Below, piece by piece: positions 1 to 21,788 of a DNA stretch of 64,000 nt. The number at the start of each line of letters is the position of its first letter. Within the stretch, counting starts at the first letter, position 1. Source of the stretch: Candidatus Saccharimonadales bacterium (lineage in GTDB: Bacteria; Patescibacteriota; Saccharimonadia; Saccharimonadales; UBA4665); contig JBAZNN010000001.1 in the NCBI GenBank assembly GCA_041649215.1, forward strand, positions 700,366 through 764,365. Reading direction: 5' to 3'. The notes under the pieces are model-generated. The model was not told the origin of the DNA, did not search any database, and worked only from the letters and a program-made list of their open reading frames with translations. The translations under genes and the position numbers were made by a program.

Positions 1-1
1 A

Positions 2-1150
2 GGCAAACGAACGTTTGAGCGCCAACAAGTTTTGAAGGACATAACTTTCAATATCAAGAAAGGTGAATTTTTTGGCATAGTTGGTCGCAATGGATCAGGC
101 AAAAGTACGCTCCTCAAAATGCTGGCCAATATATACACACCAACCGAAGGCAACATACAGGTTGAAGGTAAGCTTACGCCGTTCATTGAGCTGGGTGTTG
201 GCTTTAGCCCAGAGCTGACGGGTCGAGAAAACGTGTTTCTTAATGGTGCCCTGCTCGGCTTTAACCACAAAGAAATGGAAGCAATGTACGATGACATTGT
301 AGAATTTGCTGAAATTGATCGGTTCATGGACCAAAAGCTTAAAAACTATTCGTCGGGCATGCAGGTGAGGTTGGCATTCTCCATTGCTATTCGGGCGCAG
401 AGCGACATATTAGTGTTGGATGAAGTGTTGGCCGTCGGAGACGCCATATTTCAAAAAAAATGCTATGACTACTTCAAGACCCTTAAAAAGAACAAGCAGA
501 CCGTAGTATTCGTTAGCCACGATACTGGAGCGCTGCAGGAGTATTGCGATAAAGGGATTGTGGTTGAAAACGGCAGCATAGTCTACGAGGGCCCAATAGA
601 CCGTGTCGTGAACACCTATCTAGATATTCTTAATGAAACCGAAGAACGTCATGACGAACAGACCGCAAGACCCGAAACGGACAGCAGCAAAGACGACATA
701 AAGAATCGTTGGGGAACGGGAGAGATAAAGATCAACAAAGTATATGTCGGGAAAGAGGGGGGTGATGAAGCGAGATCATTTAAAGACGAGGATTCGCAAA
801 TCGTTATTAGGGTTCAATTTGAAGCCGTAAGCTCTGTAGAAAGACCGGTTTACGGAATCACCATAACGGACGTTTCGGGTCAGATTATATTTCAATCAAA
901 CACACTCTGGTGTGAGTATAAGACGAAAGATATAATCCCTGGCGAAGTAGTCAATATCGAATGGATTATTCCGAACGCTTTCAATACTGGGACATTGCAC
1001 ATATCTCCAGCAGCAGCAGACTCAGTCGGGAGCGTTATCTATGAATGGCTCGAAAACGCGGCCACATTTAAGGTGAGAAAAAGACAGAAAAGCCACGGTC
1101 ACATCAACACCACACATAAACTAAACGTAACTTATGAGCACGATAACTAA
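2..1150 (+). CDS. wzt: Polysaccharide/teichoic-acid-type ABC exporter ATP-binding protein (Wzt/TagH family) with C-terminal Wzt_C-like carbohydrate-binding domain; 5' end cut by window edge
   Basis: The frame stays open back to nt 2 (GKRTFERQQVLKD...), so the TTG at 32 is probably not the true start. Walker A GRNGSGKST, signature YSSGMQVRLAFS, Walker B ILVLDE, H-loop VSHD. An extra ~150-aa beta-rich C-terminal domain follows (NRWGTGEIKINKVYV...TFKVR). Confidence 0.88.
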   Translation, partial: GKRTFERQQVLKDITFNIKKGEFFGIVGRNGSGKSTLLKMLANIYTPTEGNIQVEGKLTPFIELGVGFSPELTGRENVFLNGALLGFNHKEMEAMYDDIVEFAEIDRFMDQKLKNYSSGMQVRLAFSIAIRAQSDILVLDEVLAVGDAIFQKKCYDYFKTLKKNKQTVVFVSHDTGALQEYCDKGIVVENGSIVYEGPIDRVVNTYLDILNETEERHDEQTARPETDSSKDDIKNRWGTGEIKINKVYVGKEGGDEARSFKDEDSQIVIRVQFEAVSSVERPVYGITITDVSGQIIFQSNTLWCEYKTKDIIPGEVVNIEWIIPNAFNTGTLHISPAAADSVGSVIYEWLENAATFKVRKRQKSHGHINTTHKLNVTYEHDN

Positions 1151-2276: not shown

Positions 2277-2277
2277 G

Positions 2278-3606
2278 CTAGAGGGCCTTAAGGCATGCCG
2301 ACAGACTAGCACTAAGAGTCTCTTCCCAGCTTTCCGGAACGGTTGACGGTATTGAAGTGGATACAGTTTTGGGCGCAACCAAGATGGCAGCATTTATCGC
2401 CCCAGCCATAGACTCGGCGTCCGTATCAGACATGAAAATGTGGGCTGAGTAGTTACTAAGGTCAGTTTTATTGGCATATCGTGTTGTAACTACCTGCGTA
2501 CCTATAGAGGCAAATTCCAGGGTTGGGTAGTTAGGGTGTGGGGCCATCATAGGTGAGACAGCTAAATCTATAGTTTTGCTGAACGCAACGTAGTCTTCCA
2601 TCTTCATTTTTCCCAAGTTAGTAATAACTGCGCCCGAGGTTAGTTTTATGTCTGGCAAGCTATCTTGTCCAGCCATGAAGAACTCCCATTCATTAGGATC
2701 TAGAAAATCCGCCTTGACGCTATAGTCTATTGCATTGAGCGCTGTAAAGAATAAGTTACGGTGAACATCAGGCCTACCGTACAAGAACAAGCGCCTCTTT
2801 TCATCTTTCTTTTTCTGCATCTTTGCGCCCGAGGCAAGTCGGGATACGGCAGGCTCAAACCACTGCGCAGCGTTCGTCATGAAAGCAGGATAACTACGCC
2901 CTCGCATAAAGTCGTACATCAGCTTAGTGTTGCATAGAGGCACGAAGTTATTCATTTTGTATGTTGATTCGGCGAGCACATACAGGTCGCTGTTATTGTA
3001 GAATATGGGTTCAAAATCCTGCACAAGGTAAATAAACTTCTTGGTTAATGGCAGCTGGCCGAGAAGATACGCATCCCACCAAGCTGAGGCTACATACACG
3101 TCATCTGGATGCATAGGAAGATAACCGTAAATGTTATAAGCTCTATCGGCTACACTCATTACTGTGATGTCTGATTCATTAAGCTCTACGCCAACACCCC
3201 TGAAGAAGCCTGACATATTCTCTGCATTGCCCGTTTTTAGCGTTTGCACTATCCTGAGAGGTTTCTTCTGTAGCACGGCAGCTCGTCCGGCCACAATCAA
3301 GGCTGTGGCTGTGCCACCATAGAACGATTTATCATCAAGTGTCGGTATTAGTAGTACGACGGACGCCTCCTGTCCAACCATCGGCAGGGCAGGGTTGACG
3401 GGTGTTATATATTTAAGGGAGTTGTAGTATATTTTTTCAAGTGGAGCGGTGGTCTCAACGAGAAAACTATAATCTGTGCCATCTAGTATTCGGGTCGCTT
3501 TGTTTTCTATGCGTGCCGTGAGGTGCAATGTTTTGTGCAGGATCTTATTGCTTATATGTGCCGATTTACGGGCTGCACGTATAGCAGTTCGTTTTACTTT
3601 ACTCAT
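2278..3606 (-). CDS. Glycosyltransferase, WsaF-like (putative rhamnosyltransferase)
   Basis: 442-aa ORF with two Rossmann-like halves (LLIPTLDDKSFYGGTATALIV ... YLVQDFEPIFY). By recollection it resembles the WsaF rhamnosyltransferase family. Sits in a rhamnose locus and overlaps the upstream GT2 by 8 nt. Confidence 0.55.
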   Translation of the reverse strand: MSKVKRTAIRAARKSAHISNKILHKTLHLTARIENKATRILDGTDYSFLVETTAPLEKIYYNSLKYITPVNPALPMVGQEASVVLLIPTLDDKSFYGGTATALIVAGRAAVLQKKPLRIVQTLKTGNAENMSGFFRGVGVELNESDITVMSVADRAYNIYGYLPMHPDDVYVASAWWDAYLLGQLPLTKKFIYLVQDFEPIFYNNSDLYVLAESTYKMNNFVPLCNTKLMYDFMRGRSYPAFMTNAAQWFEPAVSRLASGAKMQKKKDEKRRLFLYGRPDVHRNLFFTALNAIDYSVKADFLDPNEWEFFMAGQDSLPDIKLTSGAVITNLGKMKMEDYVAFSKTIDLAVSPMMAPHPNYPTLEFASIGTQVVTTRYANKTDLSNYSAHIFMSDTDAESMAGAINAAILVAPKTVSTSIPSTVPESWEETLSASLSACLKAL

Positions 3607-4438
3607 GAAATTCCTTAGTTATCTTGGGCAGGAACGGATCACCCTTTTTGGTATCAAAACCCTTAACATAGCTTAAATATGACCAGTAAAAGTCATTATA
3701 TGGGATTGGTGTAAATTTCCGCGACTGACTTTCTTTGTGCAAAATATATCCACCACCAACGTACCAGGTTTGTCTGCCCTTTGCATTGAGCCGAAGACAC
3801 AAGTCTACATCGCCACCGCAGATGATGAATCGTTCATCGAAGCCGCCTACCATATCGAACGCCTTACGTTGTACCACTTGTACCGCCCCTGTGACGGAGG
3901 ATAGAGGACGGTCTTTATCAATATCGTATGGGAACCGAGAGGTGCCTTTTTCTGCTCGGGCGCGATCGTAGTTCTCGGTAACGTAAAGGTGCTCCGCTTG
4001 GCCGCCTGGGCGTAAATATACTCCAGCGTGTTGTATAGTCTTTTCGCCACCAAATAATAACAGACAGCCCGTGATACCAACACTAGGGGACTGAGCTTTT
4101 TTGTACATTCTCTCAATAAGTCCGACCGAGCCTGGGCGTAACTCAGTATCGTTATTCAGAAACATGATGGTCTTGCCCGAAGACCTGCGGACTGCCCAGT
4201 TGTTTATTTTTTGATAGTTGAACGGTCGATTATAAATCAGTACTTTCGAGTTTGGGTAAGCGGCAATACCGGACTGTACAGCTTTAAGTTCCTCGGACGA
4301 AGAGTTGTTGCTGATTAGGATTATTTCCTTGACGGGGGGGCCAAACTCCAGCAGAGAACTGACTGCCTGCAAGGTCATTTTGGCTTTGTCTTTAAACGGA
4401 ATGATAACAGAAATATCAAGCTTGCTGTTTCTCGGCAT
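3599..4438 (-). CDS. Family 2 glycosyltransferase
   Basis: N-terminal ISVIIPFKDKAKMT, NNDTEL (DXD-like), GGDVDLCLR. Typical GT2 rhamnosyltransferase-like layout. Confidence 0.85.
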   Translation of the reverse strand: MPRNSKLDISVIIPFKDKAKMTLQAVSSLLEFGPPVKEIILISNNSSSEELKAVQSGIAAYPNSKVLIYNRPFNYQKINNWAVRRSSGKTIMFLNNDTELRPGSVGLIERMYKKAQSPSVGITGCLLLFGGEKTIQHAGVYLRPGGQAEHLYVTENYDRARAEKGTSRFPYDIDKDRPLSSVTGAVQVVQRKAFDMVGGFDERFIICGGDVDLCLRLNAKGRQTWYVGGGYILHKESQSRKFTPIPYNDFYWSYLSYVKGFDTKKGDPFLPKITKEFHE

Positions 4439-4464
4439 CAGAGTAATATTAACAGAAACCAGAT

Positions 4465-6858
4465 CTAATTAATAGAGTTTCCTAGAGTAACGTAGCTCAA
4501 GAAATCATCAGGTACGTCAACGGTATTATTGGCAGATCCACCCATTGAAAGAAAAGTAGAATAAGTAAGTATCTGGTGGGCAGCATTACCCTGGGCATAG
4601 TAAATTAGACCACTAGATAAACGTGCAAACGAAAAGGATTTACTATTTTGCGCAACCGGTAGTGTCCCAAGAAATACATTTGAGAAGCTGCAACGTGCCG
4701 CGGCACCTACCCCCCAGCTTGTGAGCGTTTGCGCCGAAACCGGTATACGTGTCCCACGGTACACTATGTAGGTTGCACCATCCTGCGCCTGGACGAGGCT
4801 TTGGAGGGCAGGCCCCATCACTGCCGAATCGCTGATACGGTACACGTTTGAAGCATCAAATCGGAATGCTCCTAGCTGATCTTGTGAACTGAGCGCACAA
4901 GCGGAGCCATCGATATCACGCAGAAATATCATTTGTTGCTTTGTGGGGTCAGTAAGTTGATATAGGGTTCCGCCGCCGGGAGTGATGTAGGGCGTGGTCA
5001 TGGACATGTTCTGCACCGCATCGCTAATTGCCAAAGGGCTTTTATTAAATGGAGACTTGAAAAAGTCGGCAAGATTATAAAAGGGAGTAATGGAAGACCC
5101 CTGTACTCTAAACAATAGACCAGTAGGCAACCTGAAGGTTGTGCTTGCGTCTACGATAGCCTGCGTAGGTTTGGCATCTATAATAGTGCCTAAAGCATCA
5201 AGCGCCTGCGCAGCCGGCCAGTCACTAGCAACGTTTGTTATATCGTACTTATAGCCCCCACTCAAAACGTACTTTTTTGTACCGCCTGCCGTGCTTACTA
5301 TTGATGGTATGATGCCTGCGGGCGTCGGTGGGGATGACACATAGAGAGACGCATTATCAGTCATAACAACCGAGCTAGGAGCTATAAGTGACCGAAGTAC
5401 ATCATACGAGTTAATCGCATAAAAAGCTCCACCACTGTAAGCGTAAAAAACTGGGCTAGCGCCAAACTTAACGAACGAATTATTCTCAGGCAATGAATAG
5501 CCGATCGGCTGGTTTGAGTTTATGGGACTGGTTACGGGTGTGATATCACTAGCTGTGAAACCGTTCTGCAGCAAGGCCGGGTACGTTAGGAAGGGGCGTT
5601 TGTTCCCCGACTGCATAAGATAAATAGCAGTGCCATTCAGCATGAGTCTCTTTAGGTCACCGCCATTCAGAATGAGGCTGAAAAGGTAGGGGCTGAGGGG
5701 TTTCGTAGTAGCTGTGGTTAAGCACGATGGCACTCCCCAGTCGGCGCATTGTTGTTGGGTAGAAAAGCCAAACCGGTATCCGTTATCAGCCAGATAAACT
5801 GCGCCTTGTCCTTCAACGGTGAATGTCGTCCCCAGCGTACCGCCATCGGTCAATGAGTTCATGTATGTGTCGCTGACGGGTGTCACTTTTGTTTTAGCGA
5901 AACCATAAGCTCTTAAAACGTCATACGAGGGAATCCCATAGCGCGTAGTTCCGCTTTGTAGATAGACTGCTGGACTAGCAGGAGACTGCAGAAGGAAGGT
6001 TCCTGAAGTGCTTCCAAACCAGTCATTAAAATATAACCAGAAATTACGGTTGCCGTAAGCACCACATGGTGGCGCAAGACCGTAACCTGCGGCCAAGGCG
6101 GCAGCGTTTGGTTGGTATGGTGTGTAGTCGTAAAGCGAGGCCGTGGCTTGATTTTGGATATTTAAGTACGACCCACCACAGCTAGACGAGGGGTTGTACA
6201 AGACGAAGTTGCCGGGTCCTGGAACGTAGTTAAAGCTATTCGGATAGTTGGCGTAGTTCCGGAACTGAGCGGCTGCGTGATTAACCTGGTTCCAAAATCC
6301 ATAATATTGAGAATTACACACCGCCGTATCTGGGCATCCGTAGCCGGTGGCTGCCTGGTATTGGTACGCAAATGGCCAATCGTCGGTTACTAATCCTTGC
6401 TCCTTTTGTAGTAAGACAATGAGAACCTGTGGGTTGATCCCATAATAAGTTGACGCTATAGATATTATTTGTGCGGCGCTTTGCGCCCCTGGTGGGATAG
6501 GAGCTGCCTGGCCGCTTACTTTTGTAAGGTTGTTTTCGTGAGTGCTTGGATTTTCGTAGTACCCTTTTAGGCATGTAAGTGGCAATAGTTGACCATTGTT
6601 TGCCGCGTAGTTAGCCCTACTTGTGCTCGTGCTGCCATTGGTTCCCCAGTTATCACACACGGGAACCTTGCTGTTTAAGAATGCCTGAATTTGGTCTACG
6701 GTCATAGACGAGCTGTTGTAAAACACCGAATCATCAATGATGCGCGTTGGATCGAATGCGGCAGTTGAGACCGCATGAACTTGTGGCGTAAATATAATTG
6801 CCAGAGAGCTCAAGGCTATACCAAGAACACCAAACAGCCAGAGGCTACGCTTCATCAC
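4465..6858 (-). CDS. Large secreted protein of unknown function (signal peptide; Cys-containing conserved N-terminal domain, beta-rich repeats)
   Basis: 797-aa ORF. Signal peptide MMKRSLWLFGVLGIALSSLAIIFTPQVHA. N-domain motif IIDDSVF...MTVDQIQAFL...LIVLLQKEQGLV. No catalytic motif that I can name. Confidence 0.75.
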   Translation of the reverse strand: MMKRSLWLFGVLGIALSSLAIIFTPQVHAVSTAAFDPTRIIDDSVFYNSSSMTVDQIQAFLNSKVPVCDNWGTNGSTSTSRANYAANNGQLLPLTCLKGYYENPSTHENNLTKVSGQAAPIPPGAQSAAQIISIASTYYGINPQVLIVLLQKEQGLVTDDWPFAYQYQAATGYGCPDTAVCNSQYYGFWNQVNHAAAQFRNYANYPNSFNYVPGPGNFVLYNPSSSCGGSYLNIQNQATASLYDYTPYQPNAAALAAGYGLAPPCGAYGNRNFWLYFNDWFGSTSGTFLLQSPASPAVYLQSGTTRYGIPSYDVLRAYGFAKTKVTPVSDTYMNSLTDGGTLGTTFTVEGQGAVYLADNGYRFGFSTQQQCADWGVPSCLTTATTKPLSPYLFSLILNGGDLKRLMLNGTAIYLMQSGNKRPFLTYPALLQNGFTASDITPVTSPINSNQPIGYSLPENNSFVKFGASPVFYAYSGGAFYAINSYDVLRSLIAPSSVVMTDNASLYVSSPPTPAGIIPSIVSTAGGTKKYVLSGGYKYDITNVASDWPAAQALDALGTIIDAKPTQAIVDASTTFRLPTGLLFRVQGSSITPFYNLADFFKSPFNKSPLAISDAVQNMSMTTPYITPGGGTLYQLTDPTKQQMIFLRDIDGSACALSSQDQLGAFRFDASNVYRISDSAVMGPALQSLVQAQDGATYIVYRGTRIPVSAQTLTSWGVGAAARCSFSNVFLGTLPVAQNSKSFSFARLSSGLIYYAQGNAAHQILTYSTFLSMGGSANNTVDVPDDFLSYVTLGNSIN

Positions 6859-7424
6859 TTTTGTACCGTTACTGACCCGGTAGCTTTGTTGGAAACAATA
6901 GAGCTACCTTGTTGTACATATATAGTGACCTGCCAAGTACCCTCAGAGCTAAATTCGCTGGACGATACATCTATAGGCTCACATGAATAGTAGGTCGGGC
7001 CATTCGCGATAGCCACGGTTCGAGTGATAGTTGTTTGGCCAGCAAGGCTGAATGTTGCCACACATTGTCCGGTGGCGCTATTGCTTATCAAAGTTGTGAG
7101 AGTAACCGATCCGCCACGCGCAGATTGCCCTAAACGAGTGATGGTTATGGTGTTTTGCTGAGTTGACGTACTAGAACTAGTGCCTGAAGTGGTCTGTGGC
7201 GCGCCCTGTTGCTTTATGATGTCACCGGCTTGCTTTTGCTGTGCAGAAGGGGGGCCGTAGTCGACCGAGTTTACCGGACGAGAATGGGCACCGGTAAGAT
7301 TAGTTTTTTGTTCGGCTTTATGAAAATGTTTAAAGGATAGGTATAAGCCGCCAACAAGAACAAGCAGCCCGCAGACAGCCAGTAAAAAAAATCTATGGTT
7401 GGTTATATTGTTCTTAATTCTCAT
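6855..7424 (-). CDS. Membrane-anchored Ser/Thr-rich protein, unknown function
   Basis: 189 aa with one N-terminal TM (FFLLAVCGLLVLVGGLYLSF), a TSGTSSSTSTQQ linker and a beta-rich C-domain. 4-nt overlap with the downstream gene. Confidence 0.65.
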   Translation of the reverse strand: MRIKNNITNHRFFLLAVCGLLVLVGGLYLSFKHFHKAEQKTNLTGAHSRPVNSVDYGPPSAQQKQAGDIIKQQGAPQTTSGTSSSTSTQQNTITITRLGQSARGGSVTLTTLISNSATGQCVATFSLAGQTTITRTVAIANGPTYYSCEPIDVSSSEFSSEGTWQVTIYVQQGSSIVSNKATGSVTVQK

Positions 7425-7508
7425 CTTGAGCCTATTACTGTGACCGATAAATAACCACTACAATTATAACATGTTCTTATGTCAAGCGGCCTGAGTTAGC
7501 CACTAAAT

Positions 7509-9518
7509 TTAGTGCTGAATCTTGTAAATATAAAAAGTTACAGCGGGGTACTGCACTGTTCTTTCAAGCGTTCGGCATGTAGTATCGAGGGGCATCGAGC
7601 TGAGTTCGTATTTAATAAACCTGGTTAGCTTTTGATCGCACCGGTACGATACCACGAATAAGTCCGCCTGAACGAGCCTTATACTTTGTGGCTGATCGAA
7701 TAGCAATACGTGAGCGTAGCGGTTATAAATAGATTCGTTAGACCCTCCAACATAGTTTTTCCAAAAGGCATTGTTCGGGTATAGGTCTACGCCAGTTACT
7801 GCTGGACGGTTTGACATCTGGGGTACATTCTCTAGATAGAAGTTGTCGACTGATCCCCAGACATCGGTGGCTGACGAGATATTCTGTAGCGCTGTTTGCA
7901 GGCGTTTGTCAATTACAGGACCTAGACCTCTATATATAGGGTGGATCCGCACAATGCTCACCAGGGAAAGCGCCGCTAGTATACCAAGCCCGAGCACAAA
8001 CTTTCGTGCAAAAACAAAGAACATCCCCAGACACAGAATGGTGTCGAGTGCGAGTATCAGCCAGAAGTTTGAAACGAACAAAGGGTATTCAGCCCTGGTC
8101 TCTAGGCCAGCCCACAGGCCCAAGGCCAGGTAAGTGATGGCATAACCCAAGGACACAAATACTAATACACGAGACCCTTTAAGGTACTCAGATAAGAGAT
8201 GAATGCTGTAAACAAGCGTTATTATACCTAGAAAACCGAGGCCTATCATGAGGCGTTGCTGGGGCACTAGATGCAGTAAGAATAGCTTCGTCAGTATATT
8301 GGCGGGCGGCAAGAATAGATGTGCGAGGAACAGGAGATTGCCGGCCACTAGAAGCAGAAGTACCCACTCAAGTTTCTTGTGTTTGATGTACAGGTATAGC
8401 AATAGTGCCACGGATGGTAAAAAGACGGCCACAGAAAGCAGTATGAAATTTGATGACTCGCTTTGATTGCTGACATATCTTGTCCCCCTGGTAGTTCTTT
8501 CGAGCTGGGGCTGCAGATAAGTTACAAGTAATTGCTTGAAATCATAGCCACCTGACGGGACGTCGCGCTTACCTGGATAGGCAGTGTTATTGACGGTACT
8601 AATAACCCCCGATCGGGTAGTGACAAATACCGCACCCACAATGACGGCCATCGCTGCTGCGATTATAAAAGGGGATAATAGCGTCAACCGTTGCGTCAAT
8701 TTTTTACCGCTAGTTATTTGTATGAAGTAACCGATCAAGAAAAAGGCCACAACTATAGCAACAGGAATCTGATAGGGCGGGTACAGATTCAGCCCGAAGG
8801 CTATCAGGAGGTAGGCCAGTAACAACGTCCTAAGGGTTATAAGCAATTTTCTGCCCAGCCTCCTACCAAGAAAGACAAAAGAGCGATTTTCTAGCATACT
8901 CGTTCCGACTAGTAATATAAAAAACCCGTAAAATAGGGTTGCTACCGTGCTGGTTTGATACCACCAAAAAACGAACGGACTTAGCGAAATGAGCATTGAA
9001 CTAAATATGGCCAGAAGAAGTTTACCGCGCAATATACGTAAGAAAAAATAGTAAGAACTCACCAATAGCATTACTATGAGGAACCACCACTTGAACGCGA
9101 AAGCAAATTCTAAGGGTAAAACAAAGAATGATAAATTCTGTGGCTTAAATACTGCCGACCAGTCCTTATACGGAGCATCTCCCAGGACGCTCATGTCTGT
9201 ACCGCCGTTTATGTTTACATTTACTCTATGGAAACCATTCTTTTGTTGAGCAATTGTTAACTGGGTGTTTACTAGCCATTCGTCTGAGCGAATTGGCTGC
9301 GGATTGCCAAAAAGCAGCCCGGGATCATGGCTGGTCTGCCCGTACAGATAAGAGTGGTAAACCCCAACGGAACTACCACTAATTTTAAGGGAGGTGAGTA
9401 AAAGTAGTGCACCAAAAAGAACTAGTGGAAATAGGTGTATCTTGTACGTGCGGAGTAGTCTGACAGTGTGTCGTGAACCAGACCGTATAAACCTGAGGAA
9501 GACGTTTACCATAATCAC
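7509..9518 (-). CDS. Large polytopic membrane protein, GT-C-like glycosyltransferase candidate
   Basis: 669 aa with at least 12 hydrophobic segments and a first extracytoplasmic loop bearing a SDEW motif. GTG start overlaps the stop of the upstream small transporter (GTGA). No soluble catalytic domain. Confidence 0.6.
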   Translation of the reverse strand: MIMVNVFLRFIRSGSRHTVRLLRTYKIHLFPLVLFGALLLLTSLKISGSSVGVYHSYLYGQTSHDPGLLFGNPQPIRSDEWLVNTQLTIAQQKNGFHRVNVNINGGTDMSVLGDAPYKDWSAVFKPQNLSFFVLPLEFAFAFKWWFLIVMLLVSSYYFFLRILRGKLLLAIFSSMLISLSPFVFWWYQTSTVATLFYGFFILLVGTSMLENRSFVFLGRRLGRKLLITLRTLLLAYLLIAFGLNLYPPYQIPVAIVVAFFLIGYFIQITSGKKLTQRLTLLSPFIIAAAMAVIVGAVFVTTRSGVISTVNNTAYPGKRDVPSGGYDFKQLLVTYLQPQLERTTRGTRYVSNQSESSNFILLSVAVFLPSVALLLYLYIKHKKLEWVLLLLVAGNLLFLAHLFLPPANILTKLFLLHLVPQQRLMIGLGFLGIITLVYSIHLLSEYLKGSRVLVFVSLGYAITYLALGLWAGLETRAEYPLFVSNFWLILALDTILCLGMFFVFARKFVLGLGILAALSLVSIVRIHPIYRGLGPVIDKRLQTALQNISSATDVWGSVDNFYLENVPQMSNRPAVTGVDLYPNNAFWKNYVGGSNESIYNRYAHVLLFDQPQSIRLVQADLFVVSYRCDQKLTRFIKYELSSMPLDTTCRTLERTVQYPAVTFYIYKIQH

Positions 9519-9868
9519 TTATGGGCGTTTAATAAAAGCACACCACCAAGTATTAGGATAATGCCCAGAATTTTTATTGTAGTAAATGATTCCTTGAACA
9601 CAATAAATGAGGCAAAAAAGATCAATATATAAACAAGTGCTGTAGCCAGTGGAATTATATAGCCGAGATCAAACTTTGAGATCAGGTAGATGTATAAAAA
9701 GAAACTTATACCATACAGCGCAAAACCGATAACAGTGTAGAAGTTTACGTTAAACTGGAGTTTGTTATCGAGGTAGTGAATTGGTGCTCCAGCTTTAGCG
9801 CCCAGCTTAAGAATTACAAGCCCAACAGAGGTTGTCAGGGCATACAATAACAGGATAATTTTAGACAC
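9515..9868 (-). CDS. Small 4-TM DMT/EamA-type membrane protein (ArnE/ArnF-like flippase subunit candidate)
   Basis: 117 aa with four hydrophobic helices. Size and topology match small multidrug-resistance-like polyprenyl-sugar flippases. Translationally coupled to the GT-C-like gene. Confidence 0.55.
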   Translation of the reverse strand: MSKIILLLYALTTSVGLVILKLGAKAGAPIHYLDNKLQFNVNFYTVIGFALYGISFFLYIYLISKFDLGYIIPLATALVYILIFFASFIVFKESFTTIKILGIILILGGVLLLNAHK

Positions 9869-9932
9869 TCCTGTATTGTATAGAATAACTAGCTAAAGAT
9901 AAATTGTGAAAATATTCTAGCTTGCACAGAAC

Positions 9933-10865
9933 TTACTTTACGACATTTTCTAGGTACCAGCCGTAAGTACGTTTTAGGCCTTCCTCGAAGCCTATTTTGT
10001 GGTGCCATCCGGCCTCGTGTAGTTTTGAGACATCGAGTAGCTTCTTTGGCATGCCATCGGGCTTGGATGAATCAAAGACTAACCGCCCCTCGTAGCCTAC
10101 AAGCTTTTGGATATACTCCGCCAATTCTTTAATTGAAATGTCTTCACCGGTACCGATATTAAGGAACTGTTTTTTATCGTAGTTGTTAAGCAGCCAGACC
10201 ACAGCATTCGCTAAGTCGTCGACATGCAGGAACTCACGGCGGCTGACACCCGTTCCCCAAATAATAACTTCTGGTACATTGCCAACTTTAGCCTCGTGCA
10301 TGCGGCGCAACAGGGAAGGGATAACGTGCGAGGTTTCTGGATCGAAGTTATCATTCTCTCCATATATGTTTGTCGGCATGCAAGACGTAAAGTTCATGCC
10401 AAACTCGTCGTAGATGTATTCGCACATTTTCATGCCAGAGATCTTGGCATAAGCATAAGCCTCATTGGTAGGCTCCGGCTTCCCATTCATAAAATACTCT
10501 TCCTTCATCGGTTGTGGGCACTCACGGGGGTAGATGCATGAGCTGCCCAGAAAAAGGAACTTCTTAACGCCCGCGTCTTTGGCAGACCAAATAAGATTAT
10601 TCTGAATCTGGAGATTCTCGTATAGGAATTCTGCTGGATAGGCCATGTTCGCTTTAATACCACCAACCTTGGCGGCGCTGTCTACGACGTATTCAGGTTT
10701 TTCTGTCATGAAGAAATTGTGAACCGCTGCTTGATTCATTAGGTCAAGCTCATTACGAGTTCTTAATAAGAGGCTGGTGTAGCCTTCATCTTGTAGCCGT
10801 CTTACGATAGCCGAGCCAACGAGGCCTTTATGTCCAGCCACATATATCTTTGCAGTTTTATCCAT
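9933..10865 (-). CDS. fcl: GDP-L-fucose synthase family epimerase/reductase (Fcl; may act as GDP-L-colitose synthase ColC here)
   Basis: KIYVAGHKGLVGSAIVRRL, LGSSCIYP, YAYAKI (YxxxK), VHVDDLA. Alignable end to end with E. coli Fcl as I recall it. Confidence 0.9.
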   Translation of the reverse strand: MDKTAKIYVAGHKGLVGSAIVRRLQDEGYTSLLLRTRNELDLMNQAAVHNFFMTEKPEYVVDSAAKVGGIKANMAYPAEFLYENLQIQNNLIWSAKDAGVKKFLFLGSSCIYPRECPQPMKEEYFMNGKPEPTNEAYAYAKISGMKMCEYIYDEFGMNFTSCMPTNIYGENDNFDPETSHVIPSLLRRMHEAKVGNVPEVIIWGTGVSRREFLHVDDLANAVVWLLNNYDKKQFLNIGTGEDISIKELAEYIQKLVGYEGRLVFDSSKPDGMPKKLLDVSKLHEAGWHHKIGFEEGLKRTYGWYLENVVK

Positions 10866-10877
10866 ACGAATCTCTCC

Positions 10878-12041
10878 TTATTTCGCTAGAAGACCACAGA
10901 GCATATCAAGCTCTTCATCAGTCATCTCTGGATTATTGCCAAAATAGAAGCCATTTGCATGCACCAAGTCCGAATTTGGACGAGCTGCAATATCTTGGAC
11001 ATATTTCTGATAAAACGGCTGTTTTGTCATGTTACCCGCAATAACTGGGCGGATTTCAACTTCTGCTGCTTCAAACTTTGCACGATATTGTCGGGCTAAC
11101 TCCGGAGTCTTACAGATTATTGGCATCGAAAAGTTCGACACGCTATCCATGTGCTCTAAGTCATATTGATAGAAATCATCGTTTTGAGCCATGGCTTTCT
11201 GAAATGTGTGAAAGTTACTGACCCGTTTTGCCACAATCTCGTCCCAGTATCCGATCTGAGTGTTACCAATAAATCCGTTTATCTCGGTTGGTCGGAAGTT
11301 TGAGGCAATATCGTAAAAAGTGTACTTTGCATAGAAAGCATCGGCCCCACTAGTTGCTCGCAGGCGCGTCTGTGTCTCCGGGCTCACGTTACGATCCCAG
11401 CCATGAGCTCGAGCCATAACCATCTGCTCATATAGCTCATCATCGTCAGTGCAAACCATGCCACCTTCAATCGTTGACATATGATGACCCACGAAGAACG
11501 AGAATGTCGAAGCGACACCAAAGTTACCAAGTAGGGTCTTGTTTGTTTGTGAGCCGAGCGACTCGCAGTTATCCTCCATAAGAATGACACCATGTTCGTC
11601 GCAGAGCTCTTTTATCTTTGGTAGGTTGTCACAGAAGCCAAGGACGTTGGTCAGGAAAAGACCTTTTAGATCATTGATGTATTCCTTGAGTTTTTCTGGC
11701 GAGACATTAAGTGTCTCAAGTTCACAATCAATTGCTACCGGCACGAGGCCAAGCTGAATAAGTGGCATAACGTTTGTTGGCCATGTGAGCGCAGAAAAGC
11801 CGATCTTATCCCCTTTTTTAAACCGTCCCAAGTTCATCATTGATTGGATAAGGAGCAGATTTGCGACACTACCGTTTGAGGCGTATACAGCGTGCTTTCG
11901 TTGCTGTTTTGCGGCAAAGGATTCTTCAAACATGCGGCATTGTTTGCCCATGCTCAATATATCTTCTTTTAGAATGAATTCGGCCAGAGCCTGTTTAGTT
12001 TCTGCTTCATGGTAGAAAGTAGATTTGATCAGTCTTATCAT
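10878..12041 (-). CDS. colD: GDP-4-keto-6-deoxy-D-mannose 3-dehydratase (ColD-like, DegT/DnrJ/EryC1 fold)
   Basis: EDNCESLGS...STFSFFVGHHMSTIEGGMVCTDDDELY...ARAHGWDRN closely parallels E. coli ColD. His-His (nt 11481-11486) sits where aminotransferases carry the Schiff-base Lys. Flanked by gmd and fcl. Confidence 0.78.
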   Translation of the reverse strand: MIRLIKSTFYHEAETKQALAEFILKEDILSMGKQCRMFEESFAAKQQRKHAVYASNGSVANLLLIQSMMNLGRFKKGDKIGFSALTWPTNVMPLIQLGLVPVAIDCELETLNVSPEKLKEYINDLKGLFLTNVLGFCDNLPKIKELCDEHGVILMEDNCESLGSQTNKTLLGNFGVASTFSFFVGHHMSTIEGGMVCTDDDELYEQMVMARAHGWDRNVSPETQTRLRATSGADAFYAKYTFYDIASNFRPTEINGFIGNTQIGYWDEIVAKRVSNFHTFQKAMAQNDDFYQYDLEHMDSVSNFSMPIICKTPELARQYRAKFEAAEVEIRPVIAGNMTKQPFYQKYVQDIAARPNSDLVHANGFYFGNNPEMTDEELDMLCGLLAK

Positions 12042-13096
12042 TATTTGATGTTTGCCTTTCTTTTCTCTTCTTTTAGGTCTTCCTCGGCCATTAGTTTTGC
12101 GAGCCCCTCAAAGGTTACTTTCGGTTTCCAGCCTAGTTTTTTCTCGGCCTTTGAGTAGTCGCCAATCAATAAATCAACTTCAGCTGGCCTGAAGTAACGA
12201 GGGTCTATTTTAATAATAACTTTACCTGTTTTGGTATCAAATCCTTCTTCCTCAAGATCTTTGCCCCTCCATTGCAAATCAAAACCCAACGTGCGAGCCG
12301 TTGCTTCTACAAATTCACGTACAGAATGTGTTTCGTTAGTGGCCAGCACGTAGTCATCTGGCTTATCCTGTTGCAACATCAGCCACATGCCTTCTACATA
12401 ATCTTTGGCATATCCCCAGTCACGTTTAGAATCAAGATTACCTAGGTAAAGTATCTCATCAATACCAAGTTTTATGCGTGCTAGCCCTCGCGTAATTTTG
12501 CGAGTGACGAAGGTCTCGCCGCGGCGTGGTGATTCATGGTTGAACAAGATCCCATTACAAGCAAACAGATTATAGCTTTCACGGTAGTTTTTTGTGATCC
12601 AATACCCGTAGAGCTTTGCGACTCCGTATGGTGATCGTGGGTAAAAGGGCGTTTCCTCGGTCTGGGGTATTTGCTGTACAAGCCCAAACATTTCCGAAGA
12701 TGATGCTTGATAAAATTTAGTTTTTACACCCGATTCACGGATAGCATCAAGTAGCCTTAACGTTCCCAGCGCGACTACGTCCCCAGTGTACTCGGGCATG
12801 TCAAAACTGACACGGACGTGGCTTTGCGCGCCAAGGTTATAAATCTCATCAGGCTTTATAGACTCGAGCAAACGTGAAAGGTTGCTGCTGTCCGTCAAGT
12901 CGCCATAGTGTAGAGAAAGTTGTTTTTGGCTCTCATGAGGATCTTGAAATATATGGTCGATACGACCCGTGTTGAAAGTTGACGACCTTCTGACTATTCC
13001 ATGAACTTCATAGCCTTTTTCTAGCAGAAGTTCTGCCAAGTATGATCCGTCCTGACCAGTAACACCTGTAATAAGCGCGGTTTTTTTCATGCGCAA
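12041..13096 (-). CDS. gmd: GDP-mannose 4,6-dehydratase
   Basis: [59 protein letters not shown]. Canonical Gmd. The start may be the MKK two codons in. Confidence 0.95.
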
Positions 13097-13149
13097 TGAT
13101 CTCCTAATGGGTTAAGTAAGTATGATTAATAATAAACCATATTTGCGCT

Positions 13150-13956
13150 CTAGGATAGGTTAGCCTTGCGCCTTGAAAGATTATTTACGCGCCTAACTGC
13201 CAAGGTTGTGGCAATGCGTACGGGTCTTTCCCAAAATGGAGCTATCAAACGCAACGGACGCGGTAAGTATTTGCGTTTTACCATCTCTGCCTCCTTAAGA
13301 ACCATGGGGCGATTTGAAACTGTCTGTGAGCCAGTATGCCACCGAAAGCATGCCAAAGTCTTTTTGGTGTTAACGAACTTGCCGCGCTTTCGTAATCGAA
13401 GAAACACGTCCAAATCCATCGACCACTTATTGTTTGTGTCGAATCCGCCAATTTGTTGTAATGTGGAGCATCGGAACAAAGATCCTGGTAGTGGTACAAG
13501 ATCGGGCCCCCAAGTCATTAGCCATGGGGCTAATCTTCCGGCATGACTTGTGAATATGACTCTTCCCACGTGGTCGATATAATCACAGTAACCAAAAGCC
13601 ACAACAGCTTGAGGGTTCGCATCTAGTGCCTTCGTGGATGCCTCAAGAGATCCCGGTGTTAGCATGTCATCGTCACCAATCCAAGTTATGTATTCATGGT
13701 GCGCCTTGGCTGTTGCTATACCAGCGTTCACTGCTGCCGACATACCACCCGGGTCTTCAACCACATCCGCCTTAAATCTTTTCGCCAGAGCCATAGTTTC
13801 TTTATTGTCCAACGGGAATATCATCACGATGTCATATTTAATGGGTTTTTGTTTAACTATAGACTCAAGTGTCAGCCGAAGCAGATCATTGCGCTTTCCG
13901 AGTGTAGCTATCACTACCAGTACACGGGCGTAGGGTTCCTGGTTATTTTTTTTCAT
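13150..13956 (-). CDS. Family 2 glycosyltransferase
   Basis: Start moved to the internal MKKNNQEPYARVLVVIATLG, which gives a 14-nt overlap with the upstream gene. GDDDML (DXD). GT2 fold. Confidence 0.8.
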   Translation of the reverse strand: MKKNNQEPYARVLVVIATLGKRNDLLRLTLESIVKQKPIKYDIVMIFPLDNKETMALAKRFKADVVEDPGGMSAAVNAGIATAKAHHEYITWIGDDDMLTPGSLEASTKALDANPQAVVAFGYCDYIDHVGRVIFTSHAGRLAPWLMTWGPDLVPLPGSLFRCSTLQQIGGFDTNNKWSMDLDVFLRLRKRGKFVNTKKTLACFRWHTGSQTVSNRPMVLKEAEMVKRKYLPRPLRLIAPFWERPVRIATTLAVRRVNNLSRRKANLS

Positions 13957-14320
13957 TCTCTCTCCTATACTCCGAAAGTGATATCGATAGCTCTTGGTGA
14001 AGATCCTTAACCCGGCGCTCGAGAGTTTCAAGTTTGATCCTAGAGCGGTTAGCCATGAAGAGCACTACAACGATACCCGTAATCTGTACGACATCAAACA
14101 AACTCAAGGGCTCAGTCTGCGTCAAGCCATTGGAGAACAAGAATTGGTAAATGAACTTTACTGATGCCAGGGCGCCTAAAATAAAGATCCATATAACCGT
14201 CTGCGACAGGTACTTTTTGCGGGTAAACTTGCCGAGCTTAAAATCGACAAGTGCGCTTAAAAGGGCAGCAAAAATTAGAGGAATATTCAATAGAACTAGC
14301 AGTACGTACCTACTCACCAA
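13943..14320 (-). CDS. Small membrane protein (DUF2304/GacJ-like partner of polyprenyl-phosphate GT2)
   Basis: 125 aa with 3-4 TM segments then a charged coiled tail. Overlaps the upstream GT2 by 11 nt. This pairing is typical of DUF2304 proteins. Confidence 0.55.
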   Translation of the reverse strand: MVSRYVLLVLLNIPLIFAALLSALVDFKLGKFTRKKYLSQTVIWIFILGALASVKFIYQFLFSNGLTQTEPLSLFDVVQITGIVVVLFMANRSRIKLETLERRVKDLHQELSISLSEYRRENEKK

Positions 14321-15032
14321 AGAACTCCACTAATCTCCTCGCAACCAAGGTTTTGACTATGTTAAATGCATTCCAGTTGTTCTGGCGGTGGGGTTTGCCG
14401 GTTGAATAATCTGTATAGATCGCTTTGATGGGGAACTCTCCTATGTTTAAGTTAATTTGTTTGGCACGCCATAACATCTCGGAGCAGAACTCGTAGCCAC
14501 TAGTTTTCCATTTAAGCTCTGCCAAGGCGCGTTTTGAAAATACACGTAGACCTGACTGTGAGTCCGTAACATTGATGCCAAAGAGAACGTATGTGATGAA
14601 ACTTAGACCCTTGTTCCCCAGAACCTTGACGCGTGACATGCCCGCATTATTGATCAGACGGCTACCAATGAGCAGATCGGCTTGTTTACGGGTGAGTTCT
14701 TCCACGCCTTTTAGGACATCTTCTGGATCGTGTTGACCGTCCGCATCGGAAGTAGTTGCGATGTCAAAACATTGTTGTTGGGCGTAGCTAAGTCCGGTGG
14801 CCGTGGCGCCACCGCTGCCCGTATTGAGTATGTGCTTTATGACGTGCGCACCTGCCAATTTTGCCTCAATACTAGTGTTGTCTTTTGAGCCGTCATCCAC
14901 GACCACAATCTGAAAATCGTATGGCGATTTCTTAAACACTTTATATAAATCGGTAACAACGCCACGCATAACCTCGCCTTCGTTGTAGGCAGGTATGACT
15001 AAAGCTACTCTTGTGCTCGCCAACTTAGACAT
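14310..15032 (-). CDS. Polyprenyl-phosphate glycosyltransferase (GT2, DPM1/GtrB/GacI-like)
   Basis: [41 protein letters not shown] short 240-aa soluble GT2 of the lipid-carrier sugar synthase type. Confidence 0.85.
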
Positions 15033-15894
15033 AATTATGAGTTAATTCTAGCAGATAGTGGCCATAGCCGGATTTTTTTAGTGGCTCGGCGAGAGTTTTT
15101 AATTGTTCGGTGGTTATGAAGCCTTCTTGGTAAGCCACTTCTTCTATGCAGCCTATCTTGTAGCCGGTGCGTTTTTCGATGACCTCTACGAACTGGCTGG
15201 CGCTGTTCATGCTCTCGAACGTACCGGTGTCGAGCCAGGCAGAGCCACGGCCCATGGTTTGCACTTTGAGTTTGCCGCTCTTTAGGTATTCTTCGTTCAC
15301 GGCGGTGATCTCTAGTTCACCACGGTCACTGGGTTTGATGTTTTTGGCGATTTCTACCACGTCGTTGTCGTAGAAATAGAGTCCAACGACGGCGAAGTTG
15401 CTCTTTGGCCGCCCAGGCTTTTCCTCTATAGAAATAGCATGGCGGTCTTTGTCGAATTCGACGACGCCGTAGCGTTCCGGATCAGAAACTTGATACGCGA
15501 AGATGATACCGCCGTCAGGATTGGTGCAGCGCTTGAGACTGTTGCCAAAGCCATGACCATAAAAAATGTTATCGCCTAGTACCAGTGCGACTTTGTCATA
15601 ACCAATAAACTCTTCACCGATGATGAATGCCTGAGCCAGTCCGTCTGGGCTGGGCTGTACGGCGTAACTAAACTGGCAACCGAGCTGCGATCCGTCACCC
15701 AGTAGGCGCCGGAATGAGTCTGAATCCTCTGGTGTGGTGATGATGAGGATTTCTTTTATGCCGGCCATCATAAGCGCGCTGAGCGGGTAGTAGACCATCG
15801 GTTTATCGTAAATGGGCATCAGCTGCTTGCTAATGCCTTTGGTAATGGGGTAGAGGCGTGTGCCAGACCCGCCGGCTAATATTATGCCCTTCAC
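15025..15894 (-). CDS. rfbA: Glucose-1-phosphate thymidylyltransferase
   Basis: [18 protein letters not shown]...[18 protein letters not shown]...LGDNIFYG. Canonical RmlA. Confidence 0.96.
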
Positions 15895-16744
15895 TTTTTT
15901 AACTCCTTTGCTATGTAATCTTTTAGGTCGTCGTGCCAGTCATGGGGTTCGAAGCTGGTGGATTCGAGTTTTGTGAGCTCTAATGTGCTACGAAGCGGCC
16001 GAGGGGCGATGCCGTCCTTGCCGGCATAATATTCGGCCGTAGTGGTGTCGGAAACTTGCAGGTCAAACCCAGCAAGCTTGAATATCTCGCGGGTGATATC
16101 CGCCCAACTAGCCGATTCACCACTGTTAGTGGCATTGTATGTGCCAAAGGCGGCTTTAGTCGTTAGTAGGTGGTCAATAACCCGTACTAGTTCGCTTGTG
16201 AATGTCAGCCGGCCGACTTGGTCGGCGACGACTGTTGGGGCGATGCCTCTTTTGCCAAGATCCAGCATGGTGCGTACGAAATTTTTGCCCTCGCCAATTA
16301 CCCAGCTGGTGCGCAGCAGGTAAAACTTTGGTGTTAGTGATACGGCCAAGTCACCAGCGGCTTTACTGGCGCCGTAAACCGACAATGGCGCGAAGCCTTC
16401 GTCTTCTAGATGGCTTTCTGCGGTGCCGTCAAACACGTAGTCTGTCGAAATATGTACAAGTGTGGCGTCGTACTGGGCAGCCACGGCCACGAGGTTAGCC
16501 ACGGCATCGGCATTAATTGCCCAAGCAGCCCTACGGCCTTCGGTTGTTTCGGCGCCGTCAACATTGGTATAGGCTGCGGCATTCACGATGATTTCTACGC
16601 CCGACCAATCATATGCTTCGACGGCTGCTCGGTCGGTAATATCAAGTTTGTCCGAATCAACTGCTCGCGCTTTGGGATACTTTTGGCAGAGGGCTGTGCC
16701 TAACTGGCCTTTGGCACCGATGATTAAGATTTTTGAATCGTCCA

Positions 16745-16748
<4 letters not shown>
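15891..16748 (-). CDS. rfbD: dTDP-4-dehydrorhamnose reductase
   Basis: [28 protein letters not shown]. RmlD family. 4-nt overlaps on both sides. Confidence 0.93.
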
Positions 16749-19676
<2,928 letters not shown>

Positions 19677-19905
19677 GGGGATTAATCCTTTGCTTACGTT
19701 TATGCCTTCAACTAGTTTTCACTAGCTACTATCACACTACCCGTCTGCGATAGTGGTGTCAAATTCGAGAATTGTTCGTGTTAAACTAGTTGGGAAATGA
19801 ATACCATTAGAACCCAGGAGACGACTAGTAATAAATTGACGGCTGAACACCAGCCGTATGTTCAAACGTTTGCAGATTGCGGAAAGGTTAGTGGGTTCTA
19901 GCGGG

Positions 19906-20343
19906 ATGAAAGTTGTAATCGTAAGTGGATACTTCAACCCGTTGCACGGCGGGCATTTGGACATGATTGAGTCAGCCCGTGCCATGGGCGATAAACTAAT
20001 CGTTATCGTAAACAACGACAAGCAGCAACTACTCAAAAAGGGCAAAATCATCCTTGATGAAAAGAATCGCTTGCGCCTAATGCGTGCCCTGCGTAACGTG
20101 AATGAGGTCGTACTGTCAATTGACGAAGACCCCGCCATCATAAAAACGCTAGAAATGATTGCTAGGCAACACCCCGGCGATGAGCTTATTTTTGCCAACG
20201 GCGGCGATCGTAATAGCGAAAAGGCGATTCCCGAAGCGGCCGTCTGCCATCAGTACAATATAGAGATGCGTTTTGACGCCGGGGAAGGCAAACCCGATTC
20301 CTCAACCCGTATCAATCAGGCTACCGGCCACGAAGTAGCCTAG
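19906..20343 (+). CDS. Cytidylyltransferase-fold nucleotidyltransferase (TagD / RfaE domain II-like)
   Basis: VVIVSGYFNPLHGGHLDMI (HxGH motif), NNDKQQLLKKGK, DSSTRI (ISST-like). Start placed at MKVV. The ORF is open from 19858, so the start is uncertain. Confidence 0.72.
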   Translation: MKVVIVSGYFNPLHGGHLDMIESARAMGDKLIVIVNNDKQQLLKKGKIILDEKNRLRLMRALRNVNEVVLSIDEDPAIIKTLEMIARQHPGDELIFANGGDRNSEKAIPEAAVCHQYNIEMRFDAGEGKPDSSTRINQATGHEVA

Positions 20344-20356
20344 ATCATTATTCGTC

Positions 20357-20373
20357 CAACCCTAGTAGGGTTG
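20357..20373. terminator. Hairpin between convergent genes (possible bidirectional terminator)
   Basis: CAACCCTA-G-TAGGGTTG is a perfect 8-bp stem in the 40-nt gap between convergent stops. There is no clear U-tract. Confidence 0.35.
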
Positions 20374-20383
20374 TTGACGCGTA

Positions 20384-21685: not shown

Positions 21686-21788
21686 TTAGTTTTTCTGAAT
21701 AAGTTTACTTACCATAAATAGTAACACGTCGCTCAAGGTAGGCAGAACAGCCCGGTGGGCTATTACTGTAGGCGCGGGGGAACCGTCA

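Follow-up and report, generated by a model that had tools for sequence, protein, structure and literature searches.

Three adjacent genes in a Saccharimonadales genome, gmd, a colD-like gene and an fcl-type gene, probably form a module that converts GDP-mannose to GDP-L-colitose for a wall polysaccharide. They lie in a 64,000-nucleotide stretch of DNA (hereafter the window, C1:700366-764365) from a closed genome of 805,326 bp that is 99.98% complete, and the middle gene encodes a DegT-fold protein that groups by sequence, modelled structure and phylogeny with ColD, the GDP-4-keto-6-deoxy-D-mannose 3-dehydratase of Escherichia coli O55. Colitose has been described chiefly in the O antigens of Gram-negative bacteria, and we found no paper joining it to Saccharibacteria or Patescibacteria. 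The prediction of function is sound and concerns a ColD-like clade that is uncharacterised and occurs here in a new envelope setting; it does not amount to a new kind of system. What is added here is a third gene of the Fcl and not the ColC type, a cassette swap between gmd and fcl in a related genome, a link to Streptomyces and the missing ManC of a closed genome. If the colitose reading is right, a colitose-type wall sugar would add to the known surface of epibionts that recognise and attach to actinobacterial hosts, and would offer a chemical marker for cultured Saccharibacteria strains.

The three genes and the codons at the centre of the argument are as follows, with pyridoxamine phosphate and pyridoxal phosphate abbreviated to PMP and PLP.

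13090..12041 (ATG start) or from 13096 (alternative TTG start), minus strand: gmd, GDP-mannose 4,6-dehydratase (TIGR01472, 588 bits)
12041..10878, minus strand: ColD-like PMP/PLP-dependent sugar 3-dehydratase of 387 amino acids, predicted GDP-4-keto-6-deoxy-D-mannose 3-dehydratase (PF01041; ColD, 2gms)
11481..11486 (read 11486-11481), minus strand: codons of His186-His187 of the DegT-fold protein (from alignments with ColD and aminotransferases)
10865..9933, minus strand: Fcl-type GDP-4-keto-6-deoxyhexose 3,5-epimerase/4-reductase, predicted to finish GDP-L-colitose, possibly GDP-L-fucose (Fcl, 1bsv)

An earlier note, made by a model from the DNA sequence, had described these genes as lying head to tail with a 1-nt overlap and a 12-nt gap, and both the coordinates and the sequence bear this out: one base is common to the stop codon of gmd and the ATG of colD (TAATG), and 12 nt separate colD from fcl, with GGAG immediately after the colD stop. 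An AGGAG about 10 nt 5' of the ATG at 13090 makes this codon a likelier start for gmd than the TTG at 13096. A scan of positions 9400-13600 for promoters and terminators gave nothing above chance, and the genes are not separated by any terminator; as no such site stands out there, the trio is part of a long minus-strand unit.

In the pathway that we propose, Gmd would convert GDP-D-mannose to GDP-4-keto-6-deoxy-D-mannose, from which the ColD-like enzyme would remove the 3-hydroxyl in a PMP-dependent reaction to give GDP-4-keto-3,6-dideoxy-D-mannose. His186, in place of the Schiff-base lysine, would serve as the acid/base, and, because the protein has no Fe-S cluster, glutamate would be needed to restore PMP, as it is in ColD. 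The single Fcl-type enzyme would then carry out both the C5 epimerisation and the C4 reduction with fucose stereochemistry to yield GDP-L-colitose, and any intermediate escaping the ColD-like enzyme would end as some GDP-L-fucose. Colitose would finally become part of a wall polysaccharide that contains rhamnose, leaves the cell through a Wzm/Wzt-type ABC transporter and is attached to peptidoglycan. We infer the substrate, the product, its stereochemistry and the transfer route from observed protein identities, active site, clade membership, synteny and monoderm context.

The DegT-fold protein and its active site

The colD-like gene is the sole DegT-family gene of the genome, and its product scores 202 bits against PF01041. 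When compared by phmmer with proteins of solved structure, its top match in the PDB is ColD of E. coli O55 (2gms; 200 bits, E value 4e-58), followed by lower scores for the 3-dehydratase E1 (136 bits) and a SpnQ-like 3-dehydratase (112 bits), whereas sugar aminotransferases of the lysine type, including Per/GDP-perosamine synthase, reach at most 83 bits. An AlphaFold2 model built from 37 homologues has a pLDDT of 94.1, and Foldseek ranks its neighbours in the order ColD, E1 and GDP-perosamine synthase, with TM-scores of 0.89-0.91 for the ColD chains, 0.87/0.81 for E1 and 0.82-0.86 for aminotransferases. In a phylogenetic tree, a split with support of 100/97 places E. coli ColD and the clade of the window protein on one side and E1, an E1 orthologue from a Curvibacter sp. 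metagenome-assembled genome (MAG) and the lysine-type paralogues on the other. Thus, comparison with ColD, Per/RfbE and E1 puts ColD first by all three approaches, and on this evidence the DegT-fold protein groups with ColD and not with E1 or the lysine-type aminotransferases, as the earlier note had predicted for a ColD-type 3-dehydratase.

The same conclusion follows at the level of the active site. The protein carries the motif SFFVGHHMSTIEGG, and the stretch TFSFFVGHHMSTIEGG contains His186 and His187, which the earlier note had placed in the slot of the Schiff-base lysine; the residues can be read at nucleotides 11481-11486 and the alignments agree. The E. coli ColD motif given in that note is indeed SFYSHHIATMEGG, and the flanking blocks correspond closely (EDNCESLG and RAHGWDRN here, EDNCESMG and RAHGWTRN in ColD). 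The catalytic His188 of E. coli ColD is the first histidine of its pair, as indicated by the PDB variants H188N (3b8x) and H188K (2r0t), and His186 aligns both with it and with the Schiff-base lysine position of aminotransferases. The pair is invariant across an alignment of 37 sequences (A2) and was found in 82 of the 84 sequences checked, the remaining two giving no match to the search pattern. Given this conservation in all but two of 84 sequences and the E value of 4e-58 to ColD, the motif and the match are far beyond chance.

The window protein keeps ColD residues G56, S57, W88, D159, E162, S183, H188, H189, R219, N248, R250, E329 and R331, of which D159, E162, S183, H188, R219, N248, R250, E329 and R331 are conserved throughout the ColD-like clade as well. 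R219, E329 and R331 are reported to contact GDP in the ColD structures of Cook and Holden. Overall, the window protein resembles E. coli ColD in fold, in length (387 and 388 amino acids), in its HH motif in place of the Schiff-base lysine, in the EDNCES and RAHGW.RN blocks, in its cofactor residues, in having no Fe-S motif and in being encoded beside gmd and a reductase of the Fcl family.

E1 (RfbH/DdhC/AscC, PDB 3bcx) acts on CDP-6-deoxy-L-threo-D-glycero-4-hexulose; it shares with the window protein the His-His pair in place of lysine and, as predicted here, PMP-dependent deoxygenation at C3. Unlike the window protein, it has a loop of four cysteines holding a [2Fe-2S] cluster and needs the reductase E3. 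A four-Cys motif of this kind is present in E1 and SpnQ and absent from ColD (PMC8987622). In our alignment the Cys loop of E1, RDWGRDCYCAPGCDNTC, falls opposite the Cys-free RAHGWDRNVSPETQTRL of the window protein, which is like RAHGWTRNLPK of ColD. The NF011936 model for E1/RfbH gives 203 bits, below its cut-off of 423, and we rejected an E1/RfbH identity on this score, the missing Fe-S loop and the position on the opposite side of the tree. We likewise rejected a lysine-type aminotransferase with a misaligned His-His pair, which three independent alignments and the structural model exclude; the pair is correctly aligned.

The third gene, the product and the precursor

Gmd scores 588 bits against TIGR01472, above the equivalog cut-off of 415, is 63-64% identical to each of the two Gmd copies of E. 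coli O55 (in all pairwise alignments, reference ColD, ColC and Gmd are those of E. coli O55:H7 CB9615) and is encoded by a single-copy gene. In a sample of 301 Saccharimonadales genomes, from which all counts for the order are drawn, Gmd occurs in 99 and the ColD-like gene in 12, all of them among the 99, which marks the module as a patchy accessory trait; in this genome the two genes overlap by 1 nt.

The third protein, also encoded by a single-copy gene, matches E. coli Fcl (1bsv) with an E value of 1.4e-111 and conserves the equivalents of Fcl Ser107, Cys109, Tyr136, Lys140 and His179, and reaches 453.4 bits against the GDP-L-fucose synthase model NF047922, whose cut-off is 500. Its identity with E. 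coli Fcl (WcaG) is 54% and with ColC 41%, and these two share 39% with each other; E. coli Fcl is nested in the 99-supported clade of the window protein, with ColC outside it on a long branch. The suspicion in the earlier note that this homologue is very Fcl-like is therefore borne out, and by descent the third gene is of the Fcl type and not an orthologue of ColC. Like ColC (WbdJ), it is a short-chain dehydrogenase/reductase of the Fcl family encoded beside a 3-dehydratase gene and expected to perform C5 epimerisation and C4 reduction; it differs in not being orthologous. The reading of the trio as a GDP-L-colitose module in the earlier note is supported.

Several observations weigh against the colitose pathway. 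The ColD-like protein is just 32-33% identical to E. coli ColD in pairwise alignment, has Gly for Ser187 and belongs to a separate deep clade that a very long branch separates from E. coli ColD; we found no assayed member of this clade in the literature. Homologues of ColD in Campylobacter jejuni act on GDP-heptose (PMC10440746). The third gene is of the Fcl type, so GDP-fucose could be the main product. Finally, neither ManC (TIGR01479) nor a class I phosphomannose isomerase (PMI) was found in the closed genome, which leaves the starting substrate without a known source.

A syntenic locus in another genus of the same family (G244) bears on the role of the middle gene. Its order is rmlBCDA, a PpgS-like gene, a small transmembrane protein, a family 2 glycosyltransferase (GT2), gmd, a gene X, fcl, an ArnF-like gene and DUF7657, and X, in the slot of colD, encodes a sugar C-methyltransferase of 431 amino acids (L090:11113-12408, G244:C3; PF08484, 148 bits). 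A C-methyltransferase between gmd and fcl indicates that this slot holds an enzyme that modifies the 4-keto intermediate before Fcl, and predicts a 3-C-methyl-6-deoxyhexose as the product of the G244 locus.

That the trio makes mainly GDP-L-fucose, with Fcl outcompeting the ColD-like protein or refusing the 3-deoxy intermediate and the ColD-like product being minor or different, would agree with the genuine Fcl type of the third protein, with the position of true ColC outside its clade and with the presence of the same fcl without colD in G244. However, the Fcl type of the window occurs in seven sampled genomes of the order and adjoins the ColD-like gene in six of them, whereas other Saccharimonadales, those without ColD, use different Fcl types. 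The ColD tree agrees with the Fcl tree, the same 10-member clade appearing in both, which indicates that colD and fcl travel together, and the two genes are closely packed for translation. A conserved and tightly linked dehydratase without a use for its product is hard to expect, and we regard a mainly fucose-making module as unlikely. Colitose is 3-deoxy-L-fucose, and GDP-L-colitose is therefore what Fcl would make if it took the 3-deoxy intermediate and kept its usual stereochemistry; co-production of GDP-fucose would depend on how the intermediate is partitioned between ColD and Fcl.

The divergence from E. coli ColD leaves room for another substrate, such as GDP-heptose or a CDP- or dTDP-hexose, or for another 3,6-dideoxy isomer, for example ascarylose. 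Roughly one-third of the relatives at about 50% identity have neither gmd nor fcl within 6 kb, and characterised homologues of ColD take GDP-6-deoxy-4-keto-heptose (PMC10440746). Those C3-dehydratases, of C. jejuni HS:5/HS:11, belong to the ColD family and act after a GDP-sugar 4,6-dehydratase, but they share 62-67% identity with E. coli ColD and the other characterised ColDs, belong to the classical clade and work on heptose together with a cupin epimerase and a separate C4-reductase (PMC10440746). The window, on its side, has no heptose activation genes. The neighbour of its colD-like gene is a Gmd at equivalog level, not a heptose dehydratase or dehydrogenase, and the genome has no nucleotidyltransferase of the HddC type or for CDP-glucose, its PF00483 members being just RmlA (TIGR01207, 482 bits, above the cut-off) and a GalU-like protein. 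The three presumed GDP contacts are kept, and an Fcl this near to that of E. coli should reduce with fucose stereochemistry. A change of substrate or isomer is, on balance, very improbable, and its GDP-heptose version was set aside as unsupported here, with an equivalog-level Gmd as partner and no HddC-type transferase.

For the colitose pathway, this leaves the supply of GDP-mannose. Whereas the E. coli O55 pathway comprises ManB, ManC, Gmd, ColD and ColC, the genome studied here lacks ManC; the earlier note had remarked that there is no manC in the window, and this extends to the whole closed genome. A Saccharimonadales ManC used as query found nothing better than an E value of 0.3 in the genome and no remnant of a ManC pseudogene. 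A phosphomannomutase/phosphoglucomutase (PMM/PGM) is present, the sole mutase of the genome, at window positions 18309-19676. The GalU-like gene (C1:240629-241426; L002:1486-2376) is an unlikely substitute for ManC, as it also occurs in ManC-positive relatives.

One explanation is that the module is idle or being lost in this genome, which cannot make GDP-mannose without ManC and PMI. ManC is found in 10 of the 12 ColD-bearing relatives, usually within 20 kb, and adjoins rmlB in the syntenic G244; across the order Gmd and ManC are associated with an odds ratio of 7.9 (p 5e-15). Against idleness, the three open reading frames (ORFs) are intact with coupled starts and all catalytic residues, which argues against decay, and no remnant of ManC is left. 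This type of ManC is also absent from 26 of the 99 Gmd-bearing genomes, and both G028 and G179, which has gmd-colD-fcl and is 96% complete, have no PF00483 (NTP_transferase) member at all, pointing to another route of supply rather than decay. We therefore think an idle module less probable still than one devoted to fucose. The gap might instead reflect an unrecognised guanylyltransferase, a promiscuous RmlA or uptake from a host. A more specific version of the last, to which we give little credence, is that the epibiont, like other Gmd-bearing Saccharimonadales without ManC, draws GDP-mannose, or a precursor for an unrecognised enzyme, from a GDP-mannose-rich actinobacterial host and turns it into a 3,6-dideoxy sugar of its own surface, the nesting of Streptomyces sequences described below reflecting the same association. 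Whichever applies, the missing ManC of a closed genome raises the question of how reduced epibionts obtain nucleotide sugars.

The ColD-like clade and its distribution

By scanning GTDB species genomes, we collected at least 591 loci with relatives of the ColD-like protein, mostly from the candidate phyla radiation (CPR) and Bacteroidota. Among the best 80, identity to the query ranges from 49 to 81%, and their sources are many CPR phyla, Bacteroidota, Verrucomicrobiota, some MAGs of Proteobacteria and two cultured Streptomyces. The window protein thus belongs to a sister clade of classical ColD that is large, deep and uncharacterised. Among relatives at least 55% identical, the order gmd-colD-fcl is nearly universal, spanning CPR phyla and Streptomyces, and in Bacteroidota the order is fcl-colD with gmd nearby.

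Both cultured Streptomyces, NPDC007856 (L010:4903-8137) and NPDC093261 (L011), carry gmd-colD-fcl, with identities to the window proteins of 67-71% for ColD, 73-75% for Fcl and just 62-63% for Gmd. Their contigs have a native G+C content of 64-72%, which rules out contamination with Saccharibacteria DNA. Streptomyces ColD and Fcl are nested inside the Saccharibacteria clade in both trees (support 99), which suggests that colD-fcl passed between the Saccharibacteria lineage and the phylum to which its known hosts belong; at present sampling, the trees favour a direction from Saccharibacteria to Streptomyces.

The Curvibacter sp. MAG (locus L066; 613-2007 and 5995-7164) encodes both an E1 orthologue, 68% identical to Yersinia pseudotuberculosis E1 and with the motif SFYPAHHITMGEGG, and a member of the ColD-like clade with fcl and gmd nearby. 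The co-occurrence indicates separate functions for the two proteins and implies that a single organism has two distinct 3,6-dideoxyhexose pathways.

In public annotation this large clade of at least 591 loci goes unrecognised. Its members are labelled CDP-6-deoxy-D-xylo-4-hexulose-3-dehydrase by JGI and DegT/DnrJ/EryC1/StrS aminotransferase by NCBI. Even the authentic, crystallised ColD is in RefSeq merely a 'DegT/DnrJ/EryC1/StrS family aminotransferase' (L087:8701-10787, NC_013941), and 'GDP-L-fucose synthase family protein' is the name given to ColC of E. coli O55. Nor did any NCBIfam model for ColD give a match. Generic naming and the lack of a matching model together indicate that the ColD family is systematically under-annotated.

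Envelope context and neighbouring genes

The earlier note had read the surroundings as a monoderm-style locus for a wall polysaccharide, and the genome agrees: LpxC was not found in it and two LCP ligases were, from which we conclude that the locus serves a wall glycan and not lipopolysaccharide (LPS). In this the window gene differs from E. coli colD, which serves an LPS O antigen and is accompanied by a ManC/ManB/Gmm set that is absent here. The locus also encodes a WsaF-like rhamnosyltransferase, several GT2 glycosyltransferases and a Wzt exporter. The neighbouring features are as follows.

32..1150, plus strand: ATPase of a Wzt-type ABC exporter with a C-terminal glycan-binding domain (PF00005 and PF14524 Wzt_C)
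7509..9518, minus strand: polytopic DUF7657/DUF7654 protein of 669 amino acids, candidate extracytoplasmic transferase of the GT-C type (PF24677, 299 bits)
9515..9868, minus strand: ArnE/F-like (EamA) protein with four transmembrane segments, immediately 3' of fcl, candidate lipid-linked sugar flippase (weak ArnF and EamA matches)
13150..14031, minus strand: GT2 glycosyltransferase immediately 5' of gmd, candidate GDP-sugar transferase (PF00535)
14310..15032, minus strand: PpgS/DPM1-like polyprenyl-phosphate sugar synthase of family GT2 (NF058614 PpgS, E value 1.6e-42, below the cut-off)
15025..19676, minus strand: pmm/pgm-rmlB-rmlC-rmlD-rmlA, supply of dTDP-L-rhamnose and a hexose-1-phosphate mutase (Pfam, NCBIfam)

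Several of these genes recur beside the module. Most close relatives, L003-L005 among them, have a GT2 beside gmd, and in G179 (55% identity) and G244 (63%) the GT2 is a homologue of the one in the window. The adjacency of fcl and the ArnF-like gene is kept in L004, L005, L006, L008, G179 and G244, and in G244 two DUF7657 homologues follow the ArnF-like gene. The PpgS-like gene, overlapped by a gene for a small membrane protein, has homologues in several related loci and may be tied to the colitose module.

Two routes of transfer can be envisaged. The GT2 beside gmd might transfer the sugar directly; with GDP-beta-L-colitose as donor, an inverting enzyme of this family would form alpha-L linkages. 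Alternatively, colitose might be passed to a polyprenyl-phosphate carrier by the PpgS-like synthase, flipped by the ArnE/F-like protein and added outside the membrane by the GT-C-like transferase. The second route resembles the way in which lipid carriers serve to add side chains to the rhamnose polysaccharides of Gram-positive bacteria, as with streptococcal GacI/J/K/L and mycobacterial PpgS/Rv3779. In common with these, the rhamnan/ABC-exporter locus here encodes a PpgS/DPM1-like GT2 overlapped by a small membrane protein, a small protein resembling a flippase and a large polytopic transferase. We know of no description of a GDP-derived 3,6-dideoxyhexose on a polyprenyl-phosphate carrier.

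Elsewhere in the glycan operon, positions 4465-7424 hold ORFs of 797 and 189 amino acids, with no family match except a faint EccB-like one (E value 0.005). The part of the window with the glycosyltransferase, exporter and gmd-colD-fcl genes (1-15032) has a G+C content of 0.37-0.48, compared with 0.50-0.54 for the rml, pmm and glmS genes (15025-23618) and 0.496 for the genome. The low G+C of the variable part of the locus, also given as 0.44-0.47, fits a horizontally exchanged surface-glycan region.

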